Positions 5,050 through 22,007 are shown, numbered from the stretch's first letter. The stretch: 24,000 nt of DNA from Mycoplasmatales bacterium (GCA_965200605.1 CBDATW010000002.1:280458-304457), one strand, 5' to 3'. The notes: generated by a model not told the origin, from the letters alone. Translations and numbers: made by a program.

Positions 5050-5658
5050 TTATTTTTCTCTTTCTCTGTTTCATTCGTCAATGGTGTTAGTAAATATTTG
5101 GCTTCAATCATTTGAATTTTCTAATTCTTTTCATATTTTTTTGGCATCAGGTAAAATTAATGAATAATTATCATTGGCATTTCCAACATTTTCTATTTCT
5201 CTATCTAAATATGTATTATCTTCAAAAAAGTAATCAAGAGCATAGTAACTAAATGCTAATGCTAATTTTTCATGAGCATTACTAAATTTTCCATCATATT
5301 TCTTAGTTTTTCCTTCTTTTTGGTAAATAATATGATGTATTATTTCATGTGAAAATTGATATATTTTTTGATAATTAGAAGTTTTTTTAGGATTAATTGC
5401 CAGGTATATAGTATTGTTGTTAACTCTATATCATGGATCTTTTTTTCAAAATGCAGCATTTTTAATTCTAAATGCACCAACATCTAATAAAGATATTTTT
5501 TGGGATAATAAATTTATAGTTTCATCAACTATTTTATTTTCAACATGTGATTTATTGACATATTCATTTATATTTTTACTATAACTTCTTTTTGGTAAAA
5601 ATAATATTATGGGTATAATCGCTAGTGATATTATTGTGATTTTAATTCATTTTTTCAT
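5050..5658 (-). CDS. Hypothetical membrane-anchored protein with an HExxH zinc-metallopeptidase motif
   Basis: Hand-translated with code 4, every codon checked, 5 in-frame TGA. Sequence: MKKWIKITIISLAIIPIILFLPKRSY..DPWYRVNNNTIYLAINPKK..YQFSHEIIHHIIYQKEG..AHEKLALAFSYYALDYFF..EWNREREK. 202 aa, stop TAA 5052-5050. N-terminal hydrophobic anchor. Not in the track. Confidence 0.7.
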
Positions 5659-5724
5659 AACAATATATTATACACTTTTATTTTTAATATAATAGATATA
5701 AATACAAAATTCCTAATTTGTCTA

Positions 5725-5752
5725 TTTACTTTATGAGTTTTTATTCTATAAT
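5725..5752 (+). promoter_or_regulatory. Candidate promoter for the alpha/beta-hydrolase gene
   Basis: TTTACT (5725-5730), a 16-nt spacer, TATAAT (5747-5752), then GGAG and ATG 5780. Confidence 0.5.
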
Positions 5753-5779
5753 TAGATAATTAAAAAATGGAGAAAAAAT

Positions 5780-6913
5780 ATGAACAAAATCATTAAGGCA
5801 ATTATTGCCATACCATTAAGTGTGGTAGTAGGATACAATTTGATTATTTTATCAAATATTAATAGACCTTTTAATAAAAATAGTGTCTTTTCAGATTCAA
5901 AAGTAACAGGAGTATCTTGTATGATAGATAATTCCTATAAAAAGAAATATACATATAAAGCATGTGATAAAGAATTTAAAGTTGAAGATTGAATAAGGTT
6001 TGGTGATGCACAAAATGATGATAAAAAAGTTGTTGTGTGACTACATGGAGGGCCAATGCCATTCTTTAGTTTTTCAGAAAGTAAACTTGAAGATTCAAAA
6101 GACATTTTTAATGAAATTAGCAATTCAATCCAAGGTTATACAAGTAAAGATGCACCTTGAGACATAGCTGTTGTTAAAGAAATTTGACATATGAAACACA
6201 ATTTGTTGCTACATGGAATGGACATTGACCCAGATGAGGCTAAATTGGAGCAAACAGAATATATGGAAATTGTCAATAAAATTGTTAGACATTATCAAAA
6301 CCAAGGAAGGCAAGTGGTACTTGCCGGACACTCATATGGTGGGAATCAAATTAATGATTTTTTAAGAGTTAATGGAACAACTCCTGATGGCATTGTTTCT
6401 CTTGTAGGAAGAATTAATGGTCCAAAAAGCCAAGCCGAACTTTGAAAGAAAAGAATTGTAACAAATTATAAATATGATGGTTCAAATAATGATTCATTTT
6501 TTACAAAATATAAAATCAAGCAAGCAAAATGATCATCACCTCAAGGATTTATTGTAACTGTATTTGATGGTGCAACATTGGATTATGATTATACAAAAGA
6601 AATTGATCCTAAAAAATTAACTCACAATAATATTTTATGATATAGTTCACAAGGTGATTTGCCTGCTGGAAGTTTTTCACAAAAAGAAAGAGATTTTGCA
6701 AGAAAATATGGTCATCTAATTTATAAAACTTATCAAGATAGTGATAAACTTTATAAATATCTTGAAAAATTAGCTAAAGATGTAGGTGATGATGATGTAA
6801 TTAAAGATTTAAAAGATCACATTCCTCATGATTTTCCATTTTTAGCAGATGAAATAGATATTATTTTTCATAAAGCTTTTGATAATGAATTTGATAAAAT
6901 AGCAGATAAATAA
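5780..6913 (+). CDS. Exported or membrane-anchored alpha/beta-fold hydrolase (esterase/lipase-like)
   Basis: Track fragments 5780-5992, 6191-6445 and 6659-6913 share one frame, and the gaps contain only TGA (7 in total). 377 aa. N-terminal hydrophobic segment IIKAIIAIPLSVVVGYNLIIL, oxyanion-type VVWLHGGP, and nucleophile elbow LAGHSYGG (GxSxG). Confidence 0.8.
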
Positions 6914-7737: not shown

Positions 7738-9153
7738 ATGAAAAAACAATCATATTCATTTATAAACCTAGTTACTATTAACGTAGGTTCTATGATTGGT
7801 GTTGGAATATTCTTTAAGAACCCAGGGATCTTAAAAACTACTAACAACATCTACCTAGCTCTAGCTACCTGAGCAATTGGTGCTGTGCTGGTTTATGGGC
7901 TGTGTTTGTCTTTTGCTGAAGCGCAAAGCTACACAGGTAAAAACAATATATCAGGTACAGTTCCAAACTGAGTAAATCAGTTTTGTGGAAAAACAATGGG
8001 TCGAATCTCACAGCAAATTATGTCATGAGTTTACTACCCAGTATTTTCATCACTACTTGTATACTATGCAGTTTATTTTGCCTTTACAGGTCTAGGATGA
8101 AAGGGTGCAGACATTGAATCTAAATGAATCATAATCTATGGAGCTACTACATTAGCATACCTTGCTTTAACAATAGGTAATGTTATGTCATATAGCTTTG
8201 GTAAAGCATTGCAATTTGTTGGTACGGTAATTAAATTTATCCCTCTGCTTTTAGTTTGTGTTCTTGGATTTATAGCACCAGTTGCAAGTTCAGATGCAAA
8301 CACATTTGCAGGTATTGTTAATGGGAAAGCTCAGACATGAAACTTTGGGTCAATTTTCTTAGCAATTCCAGCTGTATTCTTTGCTTTTGATGGATTTATG
8401 GGTGGTTTGAACCTTTCTAAAGAAGAGGAAAAACCAAATGATGCTACAAAAGCTTCTCTCTTCTCAGTTGTGTCTGTTGCTATATTTTATCTAATATTTG
8501 CTGCAGCCGTTGGATTTGGTACAGATAATGGTTCTCTTTTCCCAGTGTTTGAAAAAACATTTGGAAAAAAAGGAGCAACTGCTATCTTTATGCTAATTGC
8601 TATTTCAGCTTATACTGTTGCTAACGGATTTACTGTAGCAGGAGCCAGAGCTCTAAAAGGAATGAATGATGAAAAAGGATTTATTCCATTCAAGTTAATT
8701 TCAAAAGTTGAATCTGATGGAAGACATGCAGGTCAAACTTGAGTGCTATTTGGAATGGGAATGTTCTATATGACATTATGTTTCCTAATTTCAGAAGCTT
8801 CAATTCAAAAAGCTGGACTTGTAGAATTTGATGCAATTAATGCAGCAAAACTTACAAAAGAAGCTACATTTGATAACTTTGGTACTGCAGGTGCCCAATT
8901 TGCCTTTGGACTATATGCCTTAGTTGCACTTGGAGTATTTGCCAATAGATTCTCAAATAGGCTACCGGTTATAAAACAAAAATGAATCGGCCTACAAGTA
9001 TCAGCAGCAGTTCTTGCTCTTTGAGTTGTTGTTATGAACATTATTGGTTACTTCTTGGCTAGTGCCAAAATCACAATGTGACTAGTTATCTTATCACTAT
9101 TTATTACATATGTTGCTAATAATGTTGTAAAATTATCACAAACAAGAAAATAA
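7738..9153 (+). CDS. APC-superfamily amino-acid permease
   Basis: ATG 7738 follows AAAAGGAG. One frame runs through track fragments 8398-8742 and 8743-8985, with 11 in-frame TGA. 471 aa, roughly 12 hydrophobic spans, N-terminal INVGSMIGVGIFF signature. Stop TAA 9151-9153. Confidence 0.85.
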
Positions 9154-13142: not shown

Positions 13143-13763
13143 CTATTCTCCTATTTTCTTTTTATTTATTTCTTGAGAGTTTTCAATTGTTTTAGTATTT
13201 TTTATACTATCTTGAGATTTTTTCTTTTTCTCTGGGGCAACAATCATATCAAAGAATCTTCCATTTGAATATGGTTGCTTTTCAAGTTTTGAGATATCAC
13301 TAACTACTTCATAAAATTTCATAAGAGTTTCTCTACCAACATCAGTGTGGGCCCTTTCTCTTCCTCTAAATTTTAGAGATACTTTCACTTTTGAACCTTG
13401 TTTTAGAAACTTTCTTGCATTTTTAGCCTTTGTTTCTAAATCATGCTGTCCAATATTTGGGGTGATTCTAACTTCTTTTAAACTAATAATAGTACGGTTT
13501 TTCTTTGCTTCTTTTTCTTTTTTAGATTTTTGAAATTTATATTTTCCATAATCTAAAATTTTACAAATGGGCGGTTTTGCATTGGGTGATATACAAACTA
13601 AATCAAGTCCTAGTGCCTCAGCTTTTTTAATCCCTTCTTGTGGCGACATTTGCCCAAGAGGTCCTTTTTCTCCAATTACCATTACCATTGGAAACCTAAT
13701 ATCTCTATTTATCAGATCAGTTTTTTTTGGTAGTTTTCTACTATATCGATTAAATCTTGCCAA
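13143..13763 (-). CDS. infC: Translation initiation factor IF-3 (TTG start)
   Basis: ..DLINRDIRFPMVMVIGEKGPLGQMSPQEGIKKAEALGLDLVCISPNAKPPICKILDYGKYKF..SLKEVRITPNIGQHDLETKAKNARKFLKQGSKVKVSLKFRGRE... The only start-like codon between the upstream in-frame TAA and the conserved N-domain is TTG 13763-13761, 6 nt after AAGGAG. Confidence 0.9.
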   Translation of the reverse strand: MARFNRYSRKLPKKTDLINRDIRFPMVMVIGEKGPLGQMSPQEGIKKAEALGLDLVCISPNAKPPICKILDYGKYKFQKSKKEKEAKKNRTIISLKEVRITPNIGQHDLETKAKNARKFLKQGSKVKVSLKFRGRERAHTDVGRETLMKFYEVVSDISKLEKQPYSNGRFFDMIVAPEKKKKSQDSIKNTKTIENSQEINKKKIGE

Positions 13764-13949: not shown

Positions 13950-15125
13950 CTACTTGTCTTTCAATATAGAATTGCCATTGTAAAATTTATCTAAATTAAA
14001 ATAATCATTTATTGTAGCTGCAATATCAGATAATGTTTCCCTTGTGGCTATTTCCTTTGGTTCAATACTTTTTGAATACATTATCAATGGTGTATATTCA
14101 CGTGTATGTTGATTTGTACCATTTGTAGGATCATTACCATGATCTGCTGTTATTAATAAAATATCTTTATCATTTAAATTGTTAATAATAGTTTTAATTT
14201 TATAATCAACTATTTTTAGCTTTTGATAAAATAATTTTTTATCTTGACTATGGCCAGCAAGATCAGTTTCTTGAATTGTTGCAGCAATTAAACCATCTTT
14301 TTGCTCTGACATTCTTTGAATAATGCTATTCATAACTAGATTTGTTTTAACTGCTTGTTTTCTTCAAATATTATCACCAAGAATAATATCCTGAATTTTG
14401 CCAATTAGTGATACATCAATATTATTTTTAATTAGTTTGTTTTGAATTTGCTTTGATGCATCAATTCCATAACCCATATGTAGACATTGATAATTTTCAT
14501 CATATATTCCAGAATCAGAGGTGATTAATCCAACTCTTTTATCAGGTAGTTCTTTAATTGAATTTTGAATTTTTTCAATACTTGATTTTGTACCTCCAAG
14601 GGCAATAACTCTTGAATTACCTACTGTTGATCTAACTAGATTAGCAATTTTAAGAATTTTTTTAAATGATGTTTCCAAAGTTGATGCAGAAACATTTATG
14701 ATTTGACCATAATCTGCTTCTAAATTATCTGCAATCACAATTTTATCTTCAACAATAAAATATTTATCAAATTTATATTCAACATTATTATTATCTAATA
14801 TTTTTTTTATTTTATCTTTATTGTCATTTAAAATAGAAAGTTTTGGTTTGATTGGTTTTGAACCCATTATTTCCTGATGACCAAAATATGTATCAGCTCC
14901 ATAATGTTGTAATTTAAACTTACCATTAGAAGCAAAATTATTTTTAAATTTATCATTGGCAATATTAAATAATCCCAATTTATTTAAATTAGGAAATGCA
15001 TCAGGATTTTTTACAACTGAGTTTACTGTATTATAGCCAATATCTTGAGGACGAACATCTTTACAGTCATCCATTGCTCCAACTCCCAGACCATCTAAAA
15101 TTAATAATATAAATCTTTTATTCAT
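13950..15125 (-). CDS. YhfW-like phosphopentomutase-family metalloenzyme (alkaline-phosphatase superfamily)
   Basis: Track fragments 14364-15161 and 13950-14333 are one frame joined through TGA 14366-14364. The preferred ATG 15125 (MNKRFILLILDGLGVGAMDDC..) overlaps the upstream stop (ATGAATAA). Family motifs LDGLGVG, ..GHQEIMG.., ..ITADHGNDPT... 391 aa. Confidence 0.8.
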
Positions 15126-16272
15126 GTATTTTTTCTCCAAGAGAGGTAAATATACCCTCAATTTTTGGTTTTCCTTTTTGAATTCCAGAAACTACTGCTA
15201 CTTTTGATCTGGTAATAAAAATTTGTGTTCTAAATGAGGCAATAACCATATCGCCTACTTTTGGTCTGGATTTGTTAATTTTAAAACCCAAATAATAATC
15301 AATTGCCTCTGGAGCAATTGGTAATGTTTTTTGGATTTTTTTCTTTTTACCTGAAACTAATAGTACATGTTTCATATTAGATCTTCGATAGTGTCCTCCA
15401 CCAAAGAAATAGGCTCTATCTTCATAGACATGTGATATTTCAGAAACATATAACATAGCTGGTATCTCTTCTAAATTCTTAGCTGCATGGGCTGGTGTTG
15501 TTCCAGTTAAAGCATGGCCAGGTTCACCATGTGTTCCTTGGTGTTTTTTAATCAACTTCATTGTCTTAGTGCAATTTACACTTGGAATATTTATGTGAGG
15601 AAACTCAAAACCTAAATCTTTACCAATTTTAATTGCTTTTTTTACTGTTTGAAGATTTTGAGTTGGTTTAATACTTTTACCTTTATATAAGAAACATGGA
15701 AAAGAAGTAGGTCCAACCACATTGATTCCTTTTAATTTTGTTATTTTCTTTAAAAAACTTGAAAAATCTTTTAATTTAACTCCCCCCTCTTGGCCTGGGT
15801 AAATATCATCATCTTTTCCAACTACTTTAATTAAAATATCTTGTACTAAATTATTTTTAGAAGCGATTTTAGAAATTTGTTTTGCCTTATGTTCTGTAAA
15901 AATAGTTAAAACATCTGGCTTATATTTAATTATTGGTTCAAGAAAGCATTTTGGAGTTTGAACTAAGTGTCCAACATTTCCAAGCGGAATCTTATTTTTA
16001 ATCATTACCATTGCTCCCCATGGATCAACTGCAACTACTTTTGGAATGCCTGATTTTCCTATTGCTTTAGCTACCAAAGGGTTTCGGCCAAATTGTTTGG
16101 TCATTTGATACAATTCAATATTATGCTTTTTAGCTTCTTTTGCCATAATTGAAGCATTTTTTTTAACTGTATCTAGATCGATGATATATGTGTTGGGCTC
16201 TAGTCTAGAATAGAGATTGATGGCTACATTAATTAACTTTGGATTTCTTTTTTGTAATTTTTTTATAAACAT
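15118..16272 (-). CDS. YhfX-like fold-type III PLP enzyme (alanine-racemase N-terminal domain family)
   Basis: Intact 384-aa ORF. TIM-barrel-like N-domain with the candidate PLP-lysine context ELYQMTKQFGRNP, ..VVAVDPWGA.., ..GTHGEPGHALTG... Its length and neighbours match E. coli YhfX (about 387 aa). Confidence 0.7.
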   Translation of the reverse strand: MFIKKLQKRNPKLINVAINLYSRLEPNTYIIDLDTVKKNASIMAKEAKKHNIELYQMTKQFGRNPLVAKAIGKSGIPKVVAVDPWGAMVMIKNKIPLGNVGHLVQTPKCFLEPIIKYKPDVLTIFTEHKAKQISKIASKNNLVQDILIKVVGKDDDIYPGQEGGVKLKDFSSFLKKITKLKGINVVGPTSFPCFLYKGKSIKPTQNLQTVKKAIKIGKDLGFEFPHINIPSVNCTKTMKLIKKHQGTHGEPGHALTGTTPAHAAKNLEEIPAMLYVSEISHVYEDRAYFFGGGHYRRSNMKHVLLVSGKKKKIQKTLPIAPEAIDYYLGFKINKSRPKVGDMVIASFRTQIFITRSKVAVVSGIQKGKPKIEGIFTSLGEKIHE

Positions 16273-16275
16273 AAT

Positions 16276-17187
16276 TTAGTAATTTATAAGATTTGGGTCT
16301 TTTTTTATCCTTTCTATAGCTTCTAGTAGTTTATCTTCTGATATGATGTTTTTAAAGATATTTTTAATAATTTGGTTGTTTTTGTTGATAACCAAAGTTG
16401 CAACAGTTGAATCTATAAGTAGTTGTTTGTTACTGGTAAATGATTTAATAGGTACAACATATTTTATATTATTGATAGCATCATCAATGTTATAAATAAC
16501 TGCATCAATTTTTTTATTTTGTATATCTTCAATTAATGTGTGATATTTTTTATTAACTAATTTAACTTTTTTATTTCCAATAATTTCTTTTGTAAGTACA
16601 GCAATGTCAATTGAGTTTTCATCAATACCTACTATCATTCCGTCTTCTATTTTCTTAAATTTTGCTTTAGAAAAAATAATAGCATGTGAGCTAGTATATG
16701 ACTCCACTCCTAATTCAACTGGTATATTTAAATTAGAATATTTTTTAACAATTTTTTTTGCAGCAATTTTTGACATAATGCCAATATCAGATAATTGGTC
16801 TTCTAATAATTCTGCTCTTTTTAAACTACCTGGTTTATACAAAAGTTCAAATGGTATTTTATTTTGCTTAAATATGTATTCTAAAGCTGATGAAATTATT
16901 TTTAAATTCATTGTCAAAGGAATAGGAGAAACACAAAGTATTATTTTTTCTTTAGAAAGTTCAAATAATTTTGAATAATCAATAAAATCAATATATGAAC
17001 CATCTTTGGTTTTATTTTTAATTTTAATTGCTTTATTTTTTATAAGAAAATTTAGTGCAAAATAAACAGTCCCTCTTGAAAAGGTATAGTTATTATAAAA
17101 TTGTGAATTGTTAACTTTTGAATTCTTTTTATATAGAAAAAATTTGCGTGCTAACATTTTTATACATTGCTGTCTTTTGCTTTCCAT
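16276..17187 (-). CDS. YhfZ-like putative regulator (N-terminal winged-helix plus periplasmic-binding-protein-like domain)
   Basis: Intact 303-aa ORF. HTH-like FSRGTVYFALNFLIKNKAI near the N-terminus and an alternating beta-alpha C-terminal part. Its size matches E. coli YhfZ (about 301 aa). No obvious SD at ATG 17187. Confidence 0.6.
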   Translation of the reverse strand: MESKRQQCIKMLARKFFLYKKNSKVNNSQFYNNYTFSRGTVYFALNFLIKNKAIKIKNKTKDGSYIDFIDYSKLFELSKEKIILCVSPIPLTMNLKIISSALEYIFKQNKIPFELLYKPGSLKRAELLEDQLSDIGIMSKIAAKKIVKKYSNLNIPVELGVESYTSSHAIIFSKAKFKKIEDGMIVGIDENSIDIAVLTKEIIGNKKVKLVNKKYHTLIEDIQNKKIDAVIYNIDDAINNIKYVVPIKSFTSNKQLLIDSTVATLVINKNNQIIKNIFKNIISEDKLLEAIERIKKDPNLINY

Positions 17188-17220
17188 ACTATTATTTTAA
17201 TAAATAATTGGTGTTTTGAG

Positions 17221-18123
17221 TTAAAAATCTAATATTTTTGCAAGATTCTTTGAAGAAATTTTTTCTCATGCTTCTTTTGAAATTTGGTTTTTAAGCTTTG
17301 GATAAAATTTTTCTACAATATATCCATAACCTGTTCCACCATATTTTTTTAGATAAACTAGTCTTGAAATATCTTGTGCTAATAGGATTTGGTTTTCATA
17401 TCCTAACTTAATTAATTCAATAACTCATTGTGCTCTAAGGTCACAACTTTGAATACGATTTTTGCCAATAGTGTCAAAGGCAATTGTGAGTCCTGAATCA
17501 AGTATTTTAATTAATGTTTTAATATCTTTTACTAAATCCATATGACCAATAACGGTTTTTTTAACGTCACAACCTGCCTCTAATAGAATATCAACATGTT
17601 CCATTGTGTTATTATCATGATCTACATGTGTGAAAACCGGACACCCTGTTTCTTTTTGTGCCTCTACTGCTGCTAATAACACTTTTTTTTCTGAGGGAAA
17701 TATTTGTTTAGAACTAGTTGCCAGTTCTCCTATGGCTCCAGCTTTAATGTTGGTGTTATTAATTCCCTTGGTAATTTCTTCTATGAATTCTTTTTTTATT
17801 TCTTCAACTGTTAATTTTTTAAAGTCTTCTGTATGATATTCATGTAGGTAGTATCCAGTGGATGCTACTATTTCTATACCAATTTTTTCAGAAAGTTTTT
17901 TTAAATGTTCTGGATCTCTATGCATGCTTTGATTTGAGCAATCAACAAGAATATTGTATCCTTGTTCTTTGAAGATTTTTAATTCTTGAGATTGAAGCTC
18001 AATATCTTGTAAAATTGAATCTTCATCTTTTCTAACATGTCTTAAATCCATAGAAAGATGTTCATGCGATGATCCTAGTTTTACATCTTTGGGATCCATT
18101 AGACCTCTTACAGTTCTAATCAT
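17221..18123 (-). CDS. php: Phosphotriesterase-homology protein (Php, amidohydrolase superfamily)
   Basis: The track ORF (232 aa) continues through TGA 17427-17425 and 17268-17266 to stop TAA 17223-17221. 300 aa. Binuclear-metal ligand positions are present: SSHEHL (HxH), AIGELATS (bridging Glu as in E. coli Php), VFTHVDH, VIGHMDL, LLAQDISR. Confidence 0.88.
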
Positions 18124-19556
18124 TATAGACTTGTAGCTATTTTATATAAGACGTTTAGAATAACGCCGACAGTTAAAGCACCAATTGGTCCAATAGCAAG
18201 ATCAGAAATTTTTCTTTTTGTTTGTTGGTTAATGATAAACATTCCAATTACAAGTCCAGCTGACATTGATGGAAGTCATGTAGCTAATCCGCCAAATGGT
18301 ATCGAAACTTTAGCAATTAATCCTGCAACTGTTTTACCCATTGAAAAGGCAGCAATTGTACCACCAAATAAGAATGCTGCTTTTACAGTCCTAATAATTC
18401 CTTCTCTAAGTGAATCTGATAGTTTTTGAATTCCAGGCACTTTGAATAATACTTTTGCAATAACTTGCAGAAATTGAATTTCTAGAAACATTGAAATTGC
18501 ACCCATCACAAAAGCAATTGGAATTGCTGTTAGATATGAACTAGTATTTCCTGATGATTGTACTAATTGAAAACCAATAAGTTTAGCAATTGTTCCAAAC
18601 ATCAAAACTGCAGTAAGTCCAATTGGTGAATATACACCAGTTAGTAATGATGTTAGTACAACTAATGGAATAAATCCAATTACTCATGATAAATCAGCAA
18701 TTGCTGCAGCATATAATTTATGAGTTGTGTGTAGTCCCAATGATACAAGTGGGGCAATGGCAAATGAAGCTACTGCAGCTGCAGCAATACCACCTGATAT
18801 CATTAATCATAATCTATATTTCTTGATTTGTTCAGCACCTTCTTTAAAAGTGTTAAGTTTGGAATCAAGATTACTATTTGAAACTTTTGGCTCACTTGAT
18901 TTTGTTAATGCAAAAAATGCAATAATACCAACAAGCATTGTTAAAGCCATTGGGTACATTTTATGTTGATTTCACCCAAACATTGCAACTAATATATATG
19001 TAATTATTGACAGTACTAGAACTGGTGTTCCCTTTTTAGCCCCTGAGTGAGCATAAGCTGCTACTGCTGGGAATAATGAAAATACAAATGGAAATGCTCC
19101 ATCTCCGATTAATCCAAGTTCTCATCCAAATCCTGGATAAGAAATCTTACCAATAAAGGCTCCTAATGCATCTAGCCCATAAAATAGCGCCAAACCATAG
19201 ATTGCAGCTAATATAGTTGCTACTCCTGTTTTTCATTTTTGATCATGGTCAAATGATAAACCAATAATTTCTGCACCTAATAGTACAGCATGTACAATAA
19301 GAATTTTTGTAGCAATTGAAAATGGAATAAATCCTACAACATACCCAATTGACATTGAGAATGACATTGCAGCCAATGCTTTAAATGATAAATTTCCTTG
19401 TTTTCTTTGCCCCACAAGTGGTCTAACACCATCATTATAAACAGCAATGTTTTTGTTAGCTAAAAATGCTGTTAATGCTGAAAGTGCAGTAATTAGAAAC
19501 ATACCAATAGTTTTCAATTGTGGTAACAGTGAAATTTGTGTTAATTGTTCAGTCAT
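18123..19556 (-). CDS. YhfT-like polytopic membrane protein (candidate transporter)
   Basis: One frame links track fragments 19233-19556 and 18276-18605. I translated every codon between them and found only TGA (7 in-frame), no TAA or TAG. 477 aa, at least 10 hydrophobic spans. Stop TAA 18125-18123 overlaps the php ATG (ATAATG). Confidence 0.75.
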
Positions 19557-19571
19557 TTTAATTTTTCCTTT

Positions 19572-19922
19572 TTATTTTAAATGTTTTAGCAAGTGTGTGA
19601 TGCAGTATTCATAGTCTGCTGCAACAAATCCAAATGCTATATATCCAGATTTAATTAAATCCTTTATTTCTTCTTCACTTTTTTTAGAAGATTGGGTAGC
19701 AATTGTAACTGTTTTTTTTGCTCCTAAAAAGCTTGTTGCCATAGCAAGAGCTCCACCTCCCCCGGTATCACATGCTCCAACATAATAATCAGCTTGTCCG
19801 CTTTCGATTGCCATTGCAGCATCTAAATCAGACATAATTTCTACTTCAATTTTAGGGTTTATGTTTTGTATTTTAGCAGCAATTTCTTTTTTAACTAATT
19901 GCCCTCCTACTACTATTTTCAT
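19572..19922 (-). CDS. YhfU-like DUF2620 protein
   Basis: 116-aa ORF MKIVVGGQLVKKEI..ESGQADYYVGACDTGGGGALAMATSFLGAKK... The DYY[IV]GAC.TG.G.AL core and the length match E. coli YhfU (117 aa) as I recall it. AGGAGG SD. Confidence 0.7.
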   Translation of the reverse strand: MKIVVGGQLVKKEIAAKIQNINPKIEVEIMSDLDAAMAIESGQADYYVGACDTGGGGALAMATSFLGAKKTVTIATQSSKKSEEEIKDLIKSGYIAFGFVAADYEYCITHLLKHLK

Positions 19923-19931
19923 AAAAGCCTC

Positions 19932-20267
19932 CTATCTTCTTCGAAGGATTAATGCTAAAATATGCAACATTAAATATTGCTTTTCATTTTTTGAAATTTC
20001 AACAGGTGGATTAAAAAATAATCAATCAAATATTTCTTTTCCTTCTTCTAAATTAGGATTTTTGTCTATTGATTTTTGAGTTATATCATTAACTGGATCA
20101 ATTACTTCACCTTTAAATAATCGCTCAATAGCAATAGCTAAGTGAGTTGTTAATTCATCATTTTTGGTGTAGCCTTTTGATTCAAGTTTGTTTATTATTT
20201 CTTCTACATAATTAAATGTTTTTTGTGAAATAACACCTTTTTCTAACATTATTGAAAACTTTTTCAT
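19932..20267 (-). CDS. YhfY-like PRD-domain-only protein
   Basis: The 81-aa track ORF continues through TGA 20024-20022 into LFFNPPVEISKNEKQYLMLHILALILRRR, with stop TAG 19934-19932. 111 aa. It has two PRD-like His helices (LTTHLAIAIERL and YLMLHILALI). Confidence 0.65.
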
Positions 20268-20293: not shown

Positions 20294-20317
20294 ATTATTC
20301 CATTTTTTTGGAATAAT
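20294..20317. promoter_or_regulatory. Perfect 9+9 inverted repeat (candidate operator) abutting the -10 of the yhf-like operon
   Basis: ATTATTCCA-tttttt-TGGAATAAT. On the minus strand it sits directly upstream of the extended -10 TGTTATATT (20292-20284), covering the -35 region. Confidence 0.5.
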
Positions 20318-20402: not shown

Positions 20403-22007
20403 ATGCAAAAAATATTAGATGTAAATGCAATTAAACTTTTAGTTGCAAAATATGGTTTAAAAAATATCATTAAATCAACAATGGAACGTATTGAATATGA
20501 TTTTTCAAGATGAAAAGAATTTGATATTATTCCTCGACCTGCTTTTCATGTTCCAGGGGGAGTTATTGAATTAATGCCCTCTGCTGATAAAGAATATTTT
20601 ACATACAAATATGTTAATGGACATCCAATAAATCCAAAGCAAAATAAATTAACAGTAGCTGCAACTGGACAAATGTCTAAAACAAAAGATGGCTATCCAA
20701 TCTTTATTACTGAAATGACTATTTTAACTGCAATTAGAACAGCAGCAGTAGCTGCCCTTGCTGCAAAATATATGGCTAAAGAAGATTCTAAATCTATGGC
20801 TATTATTGGTACAGGTGCTCAATCTGAATTCCAATTAGAAGCACATTTATTAATTAGAAATTTAAAAGAAATTCATTATTTTGATACAGATCAAAAAGCT
20901 ATGGATAAGTTTGAAAGAAATGTTATTAAAAAATATCCAGATGTAAAATTTAAAAGATTTGATTCAGTGCCAGATGCTATTAAAGGAGTTGATATTGTAA
21001 CTGTCTGTACAGCTACAAAAGCTCAAATGCAAGTTATTAAAACTCAATGAATAGAACCAGGAATGCACTTAAATGGTTTAGGGGGAGATTGTCCTGGCAA
21101 GACTGAATTTGAAAAAGAAATTTTGCAACTTGATAATTCAAGAGTGGTTGTAGAATTTTTTGAACAATCATTTATTGAAGGTGAAATCCAAAATTTTGAT
21201 AAAAAAATAGCACAAGAAATAGTCTATGCTCAAATGTCAGAAATTTGTGATAAATCAAAAAAAGGTAGAGATGATGATAATCAAATTACAGTTTTTGATT
21301 CAGTGGGAATTGGTCTTGAAGATTTTTCAATGCTTTATGTTATTAAAGAATTAATTAAAAATGAGGTGATTGGTGATCAAAGAGTTATGACTCCAATACT
21401 TGATGATGTAAAAGATTTATTTGGACTTCTAGAATCAAATATTAATGTAGGCAAAATTGAAGAATTTGATACACGAGGAATTAAACCACTAGTTATTGGT
21501 GATACCATTTATGATATTTGTGCAAAAAAACAGCAATTTAAAGCAATTACTAAAGATTCATGTATGTGTACAGTGGGCGTATGATCTGGAGCTCAAAAAT
21601 ATTATGGAGCAATAGGATTAATTCATATTGGAGATGTAATTAATTCATCTATAGGTTCTCTTCTTGGAGAATCAGATAGAGAGGAACGTCTTCTTTATGG
21701 ACATCTTGGTAAAATTAATGGTCCAAACTATGTTGTTGCTGGAATTGAATTTGATCAAATTAAAAATGAGCAAAAATGAATTGATCGCCTTGATGTTTTA
21801 AACAGACATGGGGTTACTATTCATTTTAAAAGCCAGGTTGATAAATTGAGTTATAAAGAAATTATTAATCAAACTATTAAACAATTTGAAGCTAAAGGTT
21901 TGATGTGGGGAATAATTCTAACCAATGAAACTATTGATTTAATTAAACCTTACTTAAAAAATAAAAACTTTATTGGTTATGAAATAAACACAAAAGAAAG
22001 TATTTAA
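20403..22007 (+). CDS. Ornithine cyclodeaminase fused to a C-terminal domain of unknown family (about 190 aa)
   Basis: ATG 20403 follows AAGGAGAATAAT. One frame runs through track fragments 20574-21050 and 21063-21584 and on to TAA 22005-22007, with 4 in-frame TGA. 534 aa. OCD hallmarks: VIELMPSADKEYFTYKYVNGHP, LTAIRTAAVAAL, IIGTGAQSEFQ, EPGMHLNGLGGDCPGKTEF, IEGEIQ, ITVFDSVGIGLEDF, DDVKDLFG. Confidence 0.88.

Follow-up and report, generated by a model that had tools for sequence, protein, structure and literature searches.

Relatives of the E. coli yhf/php genes

The closest described relatives of the genes considered here are those at b3383-b3376 of Escherichia coli K-12, where yhfZ, yhfY, yhfX, yhfW, php, yhfU, yhfT and yhfS follow one another. 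A crystal structure of Php has been available since the 1990s (1bf6), and structures exist for YhfX and YhfZ as well; despite these structures the cluster is still without a substrate. No paper that characterises the E. coli yhf/php genes or assigns them to a pathway was found in the literature searched, and the RefSeq 2026 names of the genes are still 'putative' or 'uncharacterized'. The present analysis concerns a seven-gene yhf/php-like cluster at positions 13950-20267 of a 24,000-nucleotide stretch of DNA, here called the window, from a Mycoplasmatales bacterium (GCA_965200605.1, CBDATW010000002.1:280458-304457). An earlier note on this DNA, made from the sequence alone, had compared the cluster with the E. 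coli genes and had stated that they lack an assigned pathway; the searchable literature and the current RefSeq names give none, and the cluster maps onto no characterised pathway.

The cluster is another copy of a recognised conserved orphan gene set for which curated Pfam and NCBIfam models exist, and public genomes already contain annotated Mollicute copies, such as 'DUF2620 family protein [Mycoplasma todarodis]'. Its identity, unlike its substrate class, is no guess. The reading favoured here, which we hold to be probable, is that the window carries an intact copy, expressed as a unit, of the widespread orphan YhfZ/Y/X/W-Php-YhfU/T catabolic cluster, working by the mechanism proposed below.

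Gene content and genetic code

Under translation table 11 the operon genes are broken into fragments at TGA codons, whereas under table 4 the same DNA contains seven uninterrupted open reading frames on the minus strand, with no frameshifts or premature stops. From the 5' end of the operon they encode a YhfY-like PRD-only protein (19932-20267, 111 aa), a YhfU-like DUF2620 protein (19572-19922, 116 aa), a YhfT-family polytopic membrane protein (18123-19556, 477 aa), the PTE-family binuclear-metal hydrolase Php (17221-18123, 300 aa), a YhfZ-like regulator with an HTH_41 domain and a periplasmic-binding-protein-like ligand domain (16276-17187, 303 aa), a YhfX-like fold-type III pyridoxal 5'-phosphate (PLP) enzyme (15118-16272, 384 aa), and a YhfW-like phosphopentomutase-family metalloenzyme (13950-15125, 391 aa). 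The genes are tightly packed, overlapping by 1 nt (at 18123) and by 8 nt (15118-15125) and elsewhere separated by gaps of 9, 15, 33 and 3 nt. The coordinates, lengths, overlaps and gaps in the earlier note are all exact under code 4, and the motifs quoted there are found in the code-4 translations.

Ten TGA-Trp codons are spread across the operon genes. Because the TGA codons within the yhf genes fall in variable columns and not in conserved tryptophan columns, the genetic code was settled on RecA instead, in which both of the two TGA codons lie on conserved tryptophan positions, including the GSWYSY motif. The code-4 translations of YhfU and YhfT are 100% identical to two database proteins from one 601,261-bp NCBI/ENA contig, so the public annotation of the source genome has the same gene models. 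A contig of this size bearing the identical proteins makes 'reduced genome', as the DNA had been labelled, a reasonable description. The best match of RecA is at 61% identity (Thomasclavelia, 'Mollicutes bacterium' and Erysipelotrichaceae), in a scan that needs exact peptide words and gives no placement, and a scan of genome contigs with YhfX found no close relative.

The Pfam matches of the seven proteins are, gene by gene, PRD; DUF2620; YhfT; PTE; HTH_41 and YhfZ_C; Ala_racemase_N and YhfX-like_C; and Metalloenzyme. All the earlier family assignments were reproduced by Pfam. Each protein was also compared by BLASTP with those of the 20-kb locus of E. coli K-12, reciprocal best matches being those within that locus. 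All seven reciprocate, with YhfY, YhfU, YhfT, Php, YhfZ, YhfX and YhfW, at 21-42% identity and with E values between 5e-5 (YhfY, over its full length) and 1e-93 (YhfX). The earlier note had claimed that the cluster encodes the protein set of E. coli yhfZ-yhfY-yhfX-yhfW-php-yhfU-yhfT and had set the floor for that claim at about five of the seven; the seven reciprocal matches, and the agreement of the Pfam families, bear it out.

The window thus shares seven of the eight proteins of the E. coli locus; their lengths are nearly the same, and their active sites are conserved. Order and lengths of the E. coli genes are as the earlier note had given them. In both loci the gene for YhfU is directly upstream of that for YhfT. 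The two loci differ in other respects. The order in the window, PRD-U-T-Php-Z-X-W, is rearranged relative to E. coli; the genes use code 4; YhfT is 43 aa longer than its E. coli counterpart; and the fold-I PLP enzyme YhfS is missing, with no match in the window at E<=1 to either the E. coli or the Enterococcus faecium YhfS query (tblastn, code 4). Both the shuffled order and the absence of yhfS had been seen before. Php and YhfZ of the window fall below the NCBIfam equivalog cut-offs, which were built on enterobacterial sequences. The operon had been described as encoding no kinase, enzyme II (EII) of the phosphotransferase system (PTS) or dehydrogenase, and there is none in the whole window either.

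Maintenance of the cluster

The nearest relative, a 35-kb metagenome contig from ENA (L002), has the same seven genes in identical order and, as in the window, just upstream of infC-rpmI-rplT. Its cluster proteins are 54-78% identical to those of the window. In comparisons of all seven genes with their L002 counterparts (Nei-Gojobori), dN is 0.16-0.37 and dS is above 1.1 and saturated; infC of the same genome pair gives similar values. The seven genes are under purifying selection. The GC content is ~25-33% in the cluster and its flanks alike, and this flank-like composition, together with the TGA-Trp codons, argues for long residence in a code-4 genome.

These data bear on whether the cluster might be a decaying or recently transferred passenger without a role in its host. 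The loss of YhfS would be compatible with such a passenger, as would the mosaic make-up described below, in which YhfW and YhfZ are closer to the Firmicute than to the other Mollicute versions. However, the reading frames are intact, every catalytic residue that was checked is retained, each of the seven genes has a dN far smaller than its dS, and the same gene order at the same infC-adjacent site is found in L002, although its cluster proteins are only 54-78% identical to those of the window; the TGA-Trp codons and the host-like GC content are likewise out of keeping with a newcomer. A passenger is largely refuted by these observations and is very improbable. The cluster is long resident and selected, neither a decaying remnant nor a recent import, and a selected copy in a genome of ~0.6 Mb shows that the pathway is of use in host-associated life.

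Distribution and minimal core

Homologs of YhfX number in the thousands, the top matches being from Clostridia, Enterococcus, Vagococcus and Bacillus at ~50% identity. The set is carried by E. coli, Enterococcus, Bacillus, Brevibacillus, Clostridiaceae, Halanaerobium, Spiroplasma, M. todarodis and further code-4 genomes. Its gene content varies. In a Spiroplasma metagenome-assembled genome (MAG) the cluster reads U-T-amidase-Php-PRD-S-X-W. In M. todarodis and three code-4 genomes it reads PRD-U-T-Php-X-W', usually with an added esterase and with neither YhfS nor YhfZ. YhfS is absent from all four of the other code-4 Mollicute-type clusters examined, which puts it outside the invariant core; the Spiroplasma MAG keeps it. 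The invariant core that follows from these comparisons is PRD, YhfU, YhfT, Php, YhfX and a YhfW-family enzyme. The Mollicute comparison therefore defines a minimal core that can do without YhfS, YhfZ, amidase and esterase, and this narrows the possible essential chemistry.

The Mollicute-type clusters of M. todarodis and of the code-4 genomes L090-L093 resemble the window in their PRD-YhfU-YhfT-Php-YhfX-YhfW order, in the absence of YhfS and in a YhfT of ~480-500 aa. Unlike the window, they have no YhfZ, a short mutase-family enzyme of 350 aa and an added esterase. A divergent GntR gene takes the place of YhfZ in M. todarodis, and among the Mollicute-type loci YhfZ is found only in the window and L002, which also keep the canonical YhfW. 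The matrix of pairwise identities is a mosaic. YhfU, YhfT and Php of the window are 42-61% identical to other Mollicute versions and 34-49% identical to those of Firmicutes, whereas YhfW is of the canonical ~390-aa type, being 41-45% identical to the Firmicute enzymes and 29-32% identical to the 350-aa Mollicute enzyme.

Genes for further enzymes recur beside the cluster. A NagB-family gene adjoins it in Brevibacillus and in three code-4 genomes, amidase genes lie within it in Enterococcus, Halanaerobium and Spiroplasma, amidase and esterase partners recur, and the E. coli cluster adjoins the fructoselysine operon. In L090, L091, L092 and L093 a PF00756 esterase comes after the 350-aa mutase-family enzyme or is fused to it (the mutase-esterase product of L090 and L091 is 620 aa), and the cluster is flanked by a fructose-PTS/FruK/NagB-family block and by ascorbate-type PTS genes with transketolase.

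Php

Php matches Pfam PTE with 208 bits. Its residues H20, H22, E133, H166, H194 and D251 align with the E. coli ligands H12, H14, E125, H158, H186 and D243, so that the ligand positions of the Glu-bridged binuclear metal site, all of which had been reported as present, are accounted for six out of six. Among solved structures it is most similar to E. coli Php (1bf6/4lef, 165 bits), followed by 9efa, a 'phosphotriesterase-related protein' (121 bits), Rhodobacter 3k2g (109 bits), quorum-quenching lactonases (~100 bits) and Listeria Lmo2620 (3pnz, 95 bits). The best-scoring NCBIfam family is PRK09875, that of E. coli Php, with 199 bits against a cut-off of 486. Judged by sequence, Php of the window is a homolog of E. 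coli Php and not a demonstrated equivalog.

Two groups of characterised relatives offer precedents for its reaction. MS53_0025 of M. synoviae and MAG_6390 of M. agalactiae hydrolyse D-xylono- and L-arabino-1,4-lactone-5-phosphate; what the earlier note stated on PTE-family lactonases from mycoplasmas is correct. These two enzymes and Lmo2620, the phospho-furanose lactonases, are of the same superfamily as Php, have a binuclear metal centre and occur in Mollicutes and Firmicutes; unlike the window, their genomic context is one of ascorbate-type PTS operons. Tried against the model for phospho-furanose lactonases (NCBIfam NF045706), Php scored 82.4 bits where the cut-off is 630, and this assignment was rejected. 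Php is an E. coli-Php-type protein of another subfamily, its nearest relatives being E. coli Php and, after it, PTER.

Animal PTER is represented by 9efa and is the second-closest solved relative of the window Php. It is an amidohydrolase of N-acetyltaurine and N-acetyl-beta-alanine, in which mutagenesis has identified H26, H28 and E169 as metal-interacting. It is a eukaryotic enzyme that stands alone and has a helical insertion commonly absent from bacterial PTEs. Since Php lies outside the lactonase family, lactone hydrolysis is only one of two precedents, and since PTER is known as an amidohydrolase, amide hydrolysis is as good a precedent for Php.

The first of these precedents leads to a pure phospho-sugar-acid lactone route, like that of Lmo2620 and MS53_0025, in which Php, as a 5-phospho-pentono-1,4-lactonase, would supply the pentose phosphate pathway. 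Such phosphorylated lactones are what the characterised mycoplasma members of the PTE family hydrolyse. Among characterised proteins, YhfW and YhfU are closest to DeoB and RpiB, both of them pentose-phosphate enzymes, and three code-4 genomes have ascorbate-type PTS genes and transketolase in the vicinity of the cluster. However, the 82 bits of Php are far from the 630 that mark a phospho-furanose lactonase, Lmo2620 ranks below PTER and the quorum-quenching lactonases, and there are no PTS genes in the window. A chemistry of sugars only would also leave unexplained the invariant PLP enzyme YhfX and, in most genomes, YhfS. We consider this route quite unlikely.

YhfX, YhfW and YhfZ

YhfX matches Pfam YhfX-like_C (111 bits) and Ala_racemase_N and is 39% identical to E. 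coli YhfX. Its MTKQFGRNP motif, with K59, is invariant. The only match in the PDB is 4kbx (E 3e-81), which is named 'Uncharacterized protein YhfX'. The adjacent gene, with which that for YhfX has its 8-nt overlap, encodes YhfW; this protein scores 438 bits against NCBIfam PRK12383, the YhfW-type 'phosphopentomutase' (cut-off 254), and conserves the nucleophile T79 (in GADT) and the ligands D11, D288/H292, D328/H329 and H340. YhfZ matches Pfam YhfZ_C with 166 bits (cut-off 35), HTH_41 with 28 bits, and 2ozz in the PDB; against NCBIfam YhfZ_full it scores 228 bits, just below the cut-off of 260. Its ligand domain has a weak likeness to amino-acid-type binding proteins (SBP_bac_3, E 0.0075).

The likeness of Php to PTER and of YhfZ to amino-acid-type binding proteins could be taken together to mean salvage of N-acyl amino acids or amino-sulfonates. 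Php would then be a PTER-like deacylase, YhfX would racemise the released amino acid, partner amidases and esterases would widen the range of substrates, and the sugar-phosphate likeness of YhfW and YhfU would be misleading. It speaks for salvage that 9efa stands above all lactonases as the closest solved relative of Php after E. coli Php, that PTER hydrolyses N-acetyltaurine and N-acetyl-beta-alanine, that amidase genes occur inside the Enterococcus, Halanaerobium and Spiroplasma clusters, and that the ligand domain of YhfZ resembles SBP_bac_3, if weakly. Salvage nevertheless gives no role to YhfW, whose phosphopentomutase-family nucleophile and metal site are fully intact, and none to the RpiB-like YhfU, and is in our view rather unlikely.

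The PRD-only protein, YhfU and YhfT

The YhfY-like protein matches Pfam PRD with 32.9 bits (cut-off 23), and the histidine of its PRD signature THLA.A..R (H42) is invariant across five homologs. The YhfU-like protein matches DUF2620 with 123 bits and is 42% identical to E. coli YhfU; the invariants of the family include a Cys51-x-Thr53 motif in a Gly-rich loop. An AlphaFold2 model of YhfU, made from a 118-sequence alignment, is five-stranded alpha/beta and has a pLDDT of 96. Its best fold matches in the PDB are almost all RpiB ribose-5-phosphate isomerases (TM 0.63-0.69, root-mean-square deviation ~3.3 A, Foldseek probability 1.0, E ~2e-3). Below them, at TM <0.5, come flavodoxins and receiver domains, and no PTS EIIB is among the top 50 Foldseek matches.

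Cys51 and Thr53 of YhfU align with Cys66 and Thr68 of RpiB in two independent alignments, with 3c5y and with E. coli RpiB, neither of them significant. The fold and the Cys-x-Thr-Gly loop are shared with RpiB/LacAB, whereas YhfU is ~30 aa shorter than RpiB and has no counterpart of its D9/H10, its H99/N100 or its C-terminal Arg cluster. YhfU was rejected as a full RpiB/LacAB isomerase, since the complete catalytic set is absent and profile searching fails to reach that family. YhfU is accordingly called RpiB-like in its fold and in one catalytic loop, though not a member of RpiB/LacAB. DUF2620 also weakly matches Pfam Gly_rich_SFCGS (E 0.007), a family of another orphan cluster, in which a PRD-only protein goes together with membrane proteins that are uncharacterised, with a fold-I PLP enzyme and with an amidohydrolase; the yhf and Gly_rich_SFCGS clusters may be sister systems.

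YhfT matches Pfam YhfT with 251 bits, and reciprocally matches E. coli YhfT; it is presumed to be a permease. Its gene is directly downstream of the DUF2620 gene in all 12 comparison loci, the gap in the window being 15 nt. A model of YhfT (pLDDT 77) had no fold match in the PDB, the best TM being 0.17. The cluster had been described as an uptake-and-conversion module. The division between uptake and conversion is less clear than it had seemed, as the DUF2620 protein resembles an RpiB-type enzyme fold.

DUF2620 is found fused to a full-length PTE domain (413 aa) and to a PRD domain (267 aa), and there are partial-domain fusions to YhfT or PTE (P0269, P0323, P0328 and P0376). These could be genuine Rosetta-stone fusions or artefacts of read-through or frameshift between adjacent genes. 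They were set aside as evidence of role, the partners being operon neighbours that do not discriminate between roles.

A rival reading takes YhfY, YhfU and YhfT for a new PTS-coupled group translocation system, in which YhfU would be the phospho-carrier, by way of Cys51, and YhfT would form the channel. A substrate phosphorylated on arrival would explain why no kinase is found in the window. A PRD domain, normally a target of PTS phosphorylation, is a constant member; YhfU is always adjacent to YhfT and has an invariant cysteine in its Gly-rich loop; and DUF2620-PRD and DUF2620-YhfT fusion proteins exist. On the other hand RpiB dominates the top 50 fold matches of YhfU, with EIIB nowhere among them, YhfT matches neither EIIC nor any other solved transporter, and the fusions join adjacent genes, may result from read-through and include a PTE-DUF2620 protein too. 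The cysteine of YhfU, moreover, follows strand 3 as in RpiB, while in Rossmann-type EIIB proteins we take it to follow strand 1. Group translocation is on these grounds distinctly improbable. YhfU and YhfT were also rejected as a PTS EIIB/EIIC pair, there being no EIIB-like or EIIC-like fold match and no PTS match in Pfam.

A further idea is that the PRD-only protein, the RpiB-like YhfU and YhfT constitute an unrecognised uptake machine. YhfT would have a new transporter fold, and YhfU would be a cysteine enzyme modifying the entering substrate by isomerisation or phosphorylation; the six-gene core of the Mollicutes would then be a minimal pathway for a host-derived glycated or amino-sugar-acid nutrient. 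We put this forward as a speculation that is unlikely to hold.

A palindrome upstream of the operon

A perfect inverted repeat, TTATTCCA-N6-TGGAATAA, is found at 20295-20316, ~28 nt upstream of the first start codon, an ATG, with an AGAAGGA ribosome-binding site following shortly after it. The window contains a single copy, and 100 shuffles gave 0 matches. L002 has the palindrome too, at the orthologous site; 92 other loci, the YhfZ-less Mollicute clusters included, do not. Over the last 51 nt before the ATG the window and L002 are identical at 45 positions; beyond this block, in the upstream direction, the two have diverged. Of the six differences inside the block, four lie in the spacer of the palindrome, and its arms are conserved. 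The palindrome is a candidate operator, which would presumably serve YhfZ, the HTH regulator of the operon itself. A generic scan for inverted repeats in the AT-rich spacer was discarded because it yields many chance palindromes; only the test of the specific motif is informative. Terminator-like sites are above chance (10 vs 2.7 expected), none of them convincingly after yhfW. A gathering scan of the window with Rfam returned nothing, and no L20 leader was found before infC.

A proposed pathway

The reading of the locus as an intact yhf/php catabolic cluster can be extended to a mechanism. YhfT would import a small host- or diet-derived compound; YhfZ would sense this compound through its binding-protein-like domain and would control the operon through the conserved palindrome, which adjoins the promoter region; and the PRD-only protein would couple activity to the state of the general PTS (HPr). 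The four soluble enzymes, Php, YhfX, YhfW and YhfU, would act in series. Php would hydrolyse an ester, lactone or N-acyl bond, and YhfX, with PLP, would carry out an inversion or elimination at an alpha-amino carbon. YhfW would move a phosphate within a phospho-sugar-like moiety by way of a phospho-Thr intermediate, and YhfU, with its RpiB-like fold and Cys-x-Thr loop, would catalyse an isomerisation by proton transfer.

As a guess, the substrate might have two parts, an amino-acid-type centre and a sugar or sugar acid that can be phosphorylated, examples being an amino-sugar acid, its lactone or a glycated amino acid. A compound of this class would best fit the four enzyme chemistries, the recurrent NagB-family, amidase and esterase neighbours, and the position of the E. 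coli cluster beside the fructoselysine operon. Two concrete and cheap hypotheses for substrate screens come from the RpiB-like fold of YhfU and from how near Php stands to the amidase PTER.

Several points weigh against the cluster being a catabolic unit that works in this way. The literature searched offers no substrate, transcript or phenotype for any member, and promoter-like sites in the window are at chance level (51 vs 49.9 expected). The source of phosphate for a YhfW-type mutase is unexplained, as there is neither a kinase nor a PTS EII in the window. The link between YhfU and RpiB is structural only: hhalign gives E 0.036 and a probability of 1.4%, an exhaustive profile search of 1.84 billion proteins gathered 179 DUF2620 representatives without ever reaching RpiB/LacAB, and the other catalytic and phosphate-binding residues of RpiB are without counterpart in YhfU. 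The model of YhfT was built on a 12-sequence alignment, and the operator was called from two related sequences.

Neighbouring genes

The gene divergent from the operon (20403-22007, plus strand) encodes an ornithine cyclodeaminase over aa 3-343 (PRK07589, 397 bits vs cut-off 350), to which is fused in frame a C-terminal region of ~190 aa that has no Pfam, NCBIfam or PDB match. The earlier note had proposed that this cyclodeaminase may fill the role of YhfS. At the same divergent position beside the PRD gene, L002 has a stand-alone homolog of the C-terminal domain only (5523-5852, minus strand; 69% identity over 93 aa). As L002 keeps this domain alone, the conserved neighbour is the domain and not the cyclodeaminase. 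No cyclodeaminase was found near the other YhfS-less code-4 clusters (four examined). The Clostridiaceae locus has a mu-crystallin-family gene, 22% identical, three genes upstream, and YhfS is present there also. The proposal is thus not upheld, and replacement of YhfS by the cyclodeaminase is unlikely. The stand-alone domain of L002 is truncated at 109 aa, which may be an assembly error, the coverage of that contig being 2.2x.

Two other genes of the window are on the plus strand. That at 5780-6913 encodes a predicted secreted protein or lipoprotein of 377 aa with a weak alpha/beta-hydrolase (PGAP1-like) match, and that at 7738-9153 an APC-family amino-acid permease whose gene has 10 TGA codons in frame. 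Both lie between a ribosomal-protein block and an rny-recA block and have no evident link to the operon. Downstream of yhfW, the 186-nt spacer before infC contains no Rfam match and no convincing terminator. The infC gene itself (13143-13763, minus strand) most likely starts not at the first ATG but at a TTG at 13763, which is preceded by an AAAGGAG ribosome-binding site and gives a product of 206 aa.

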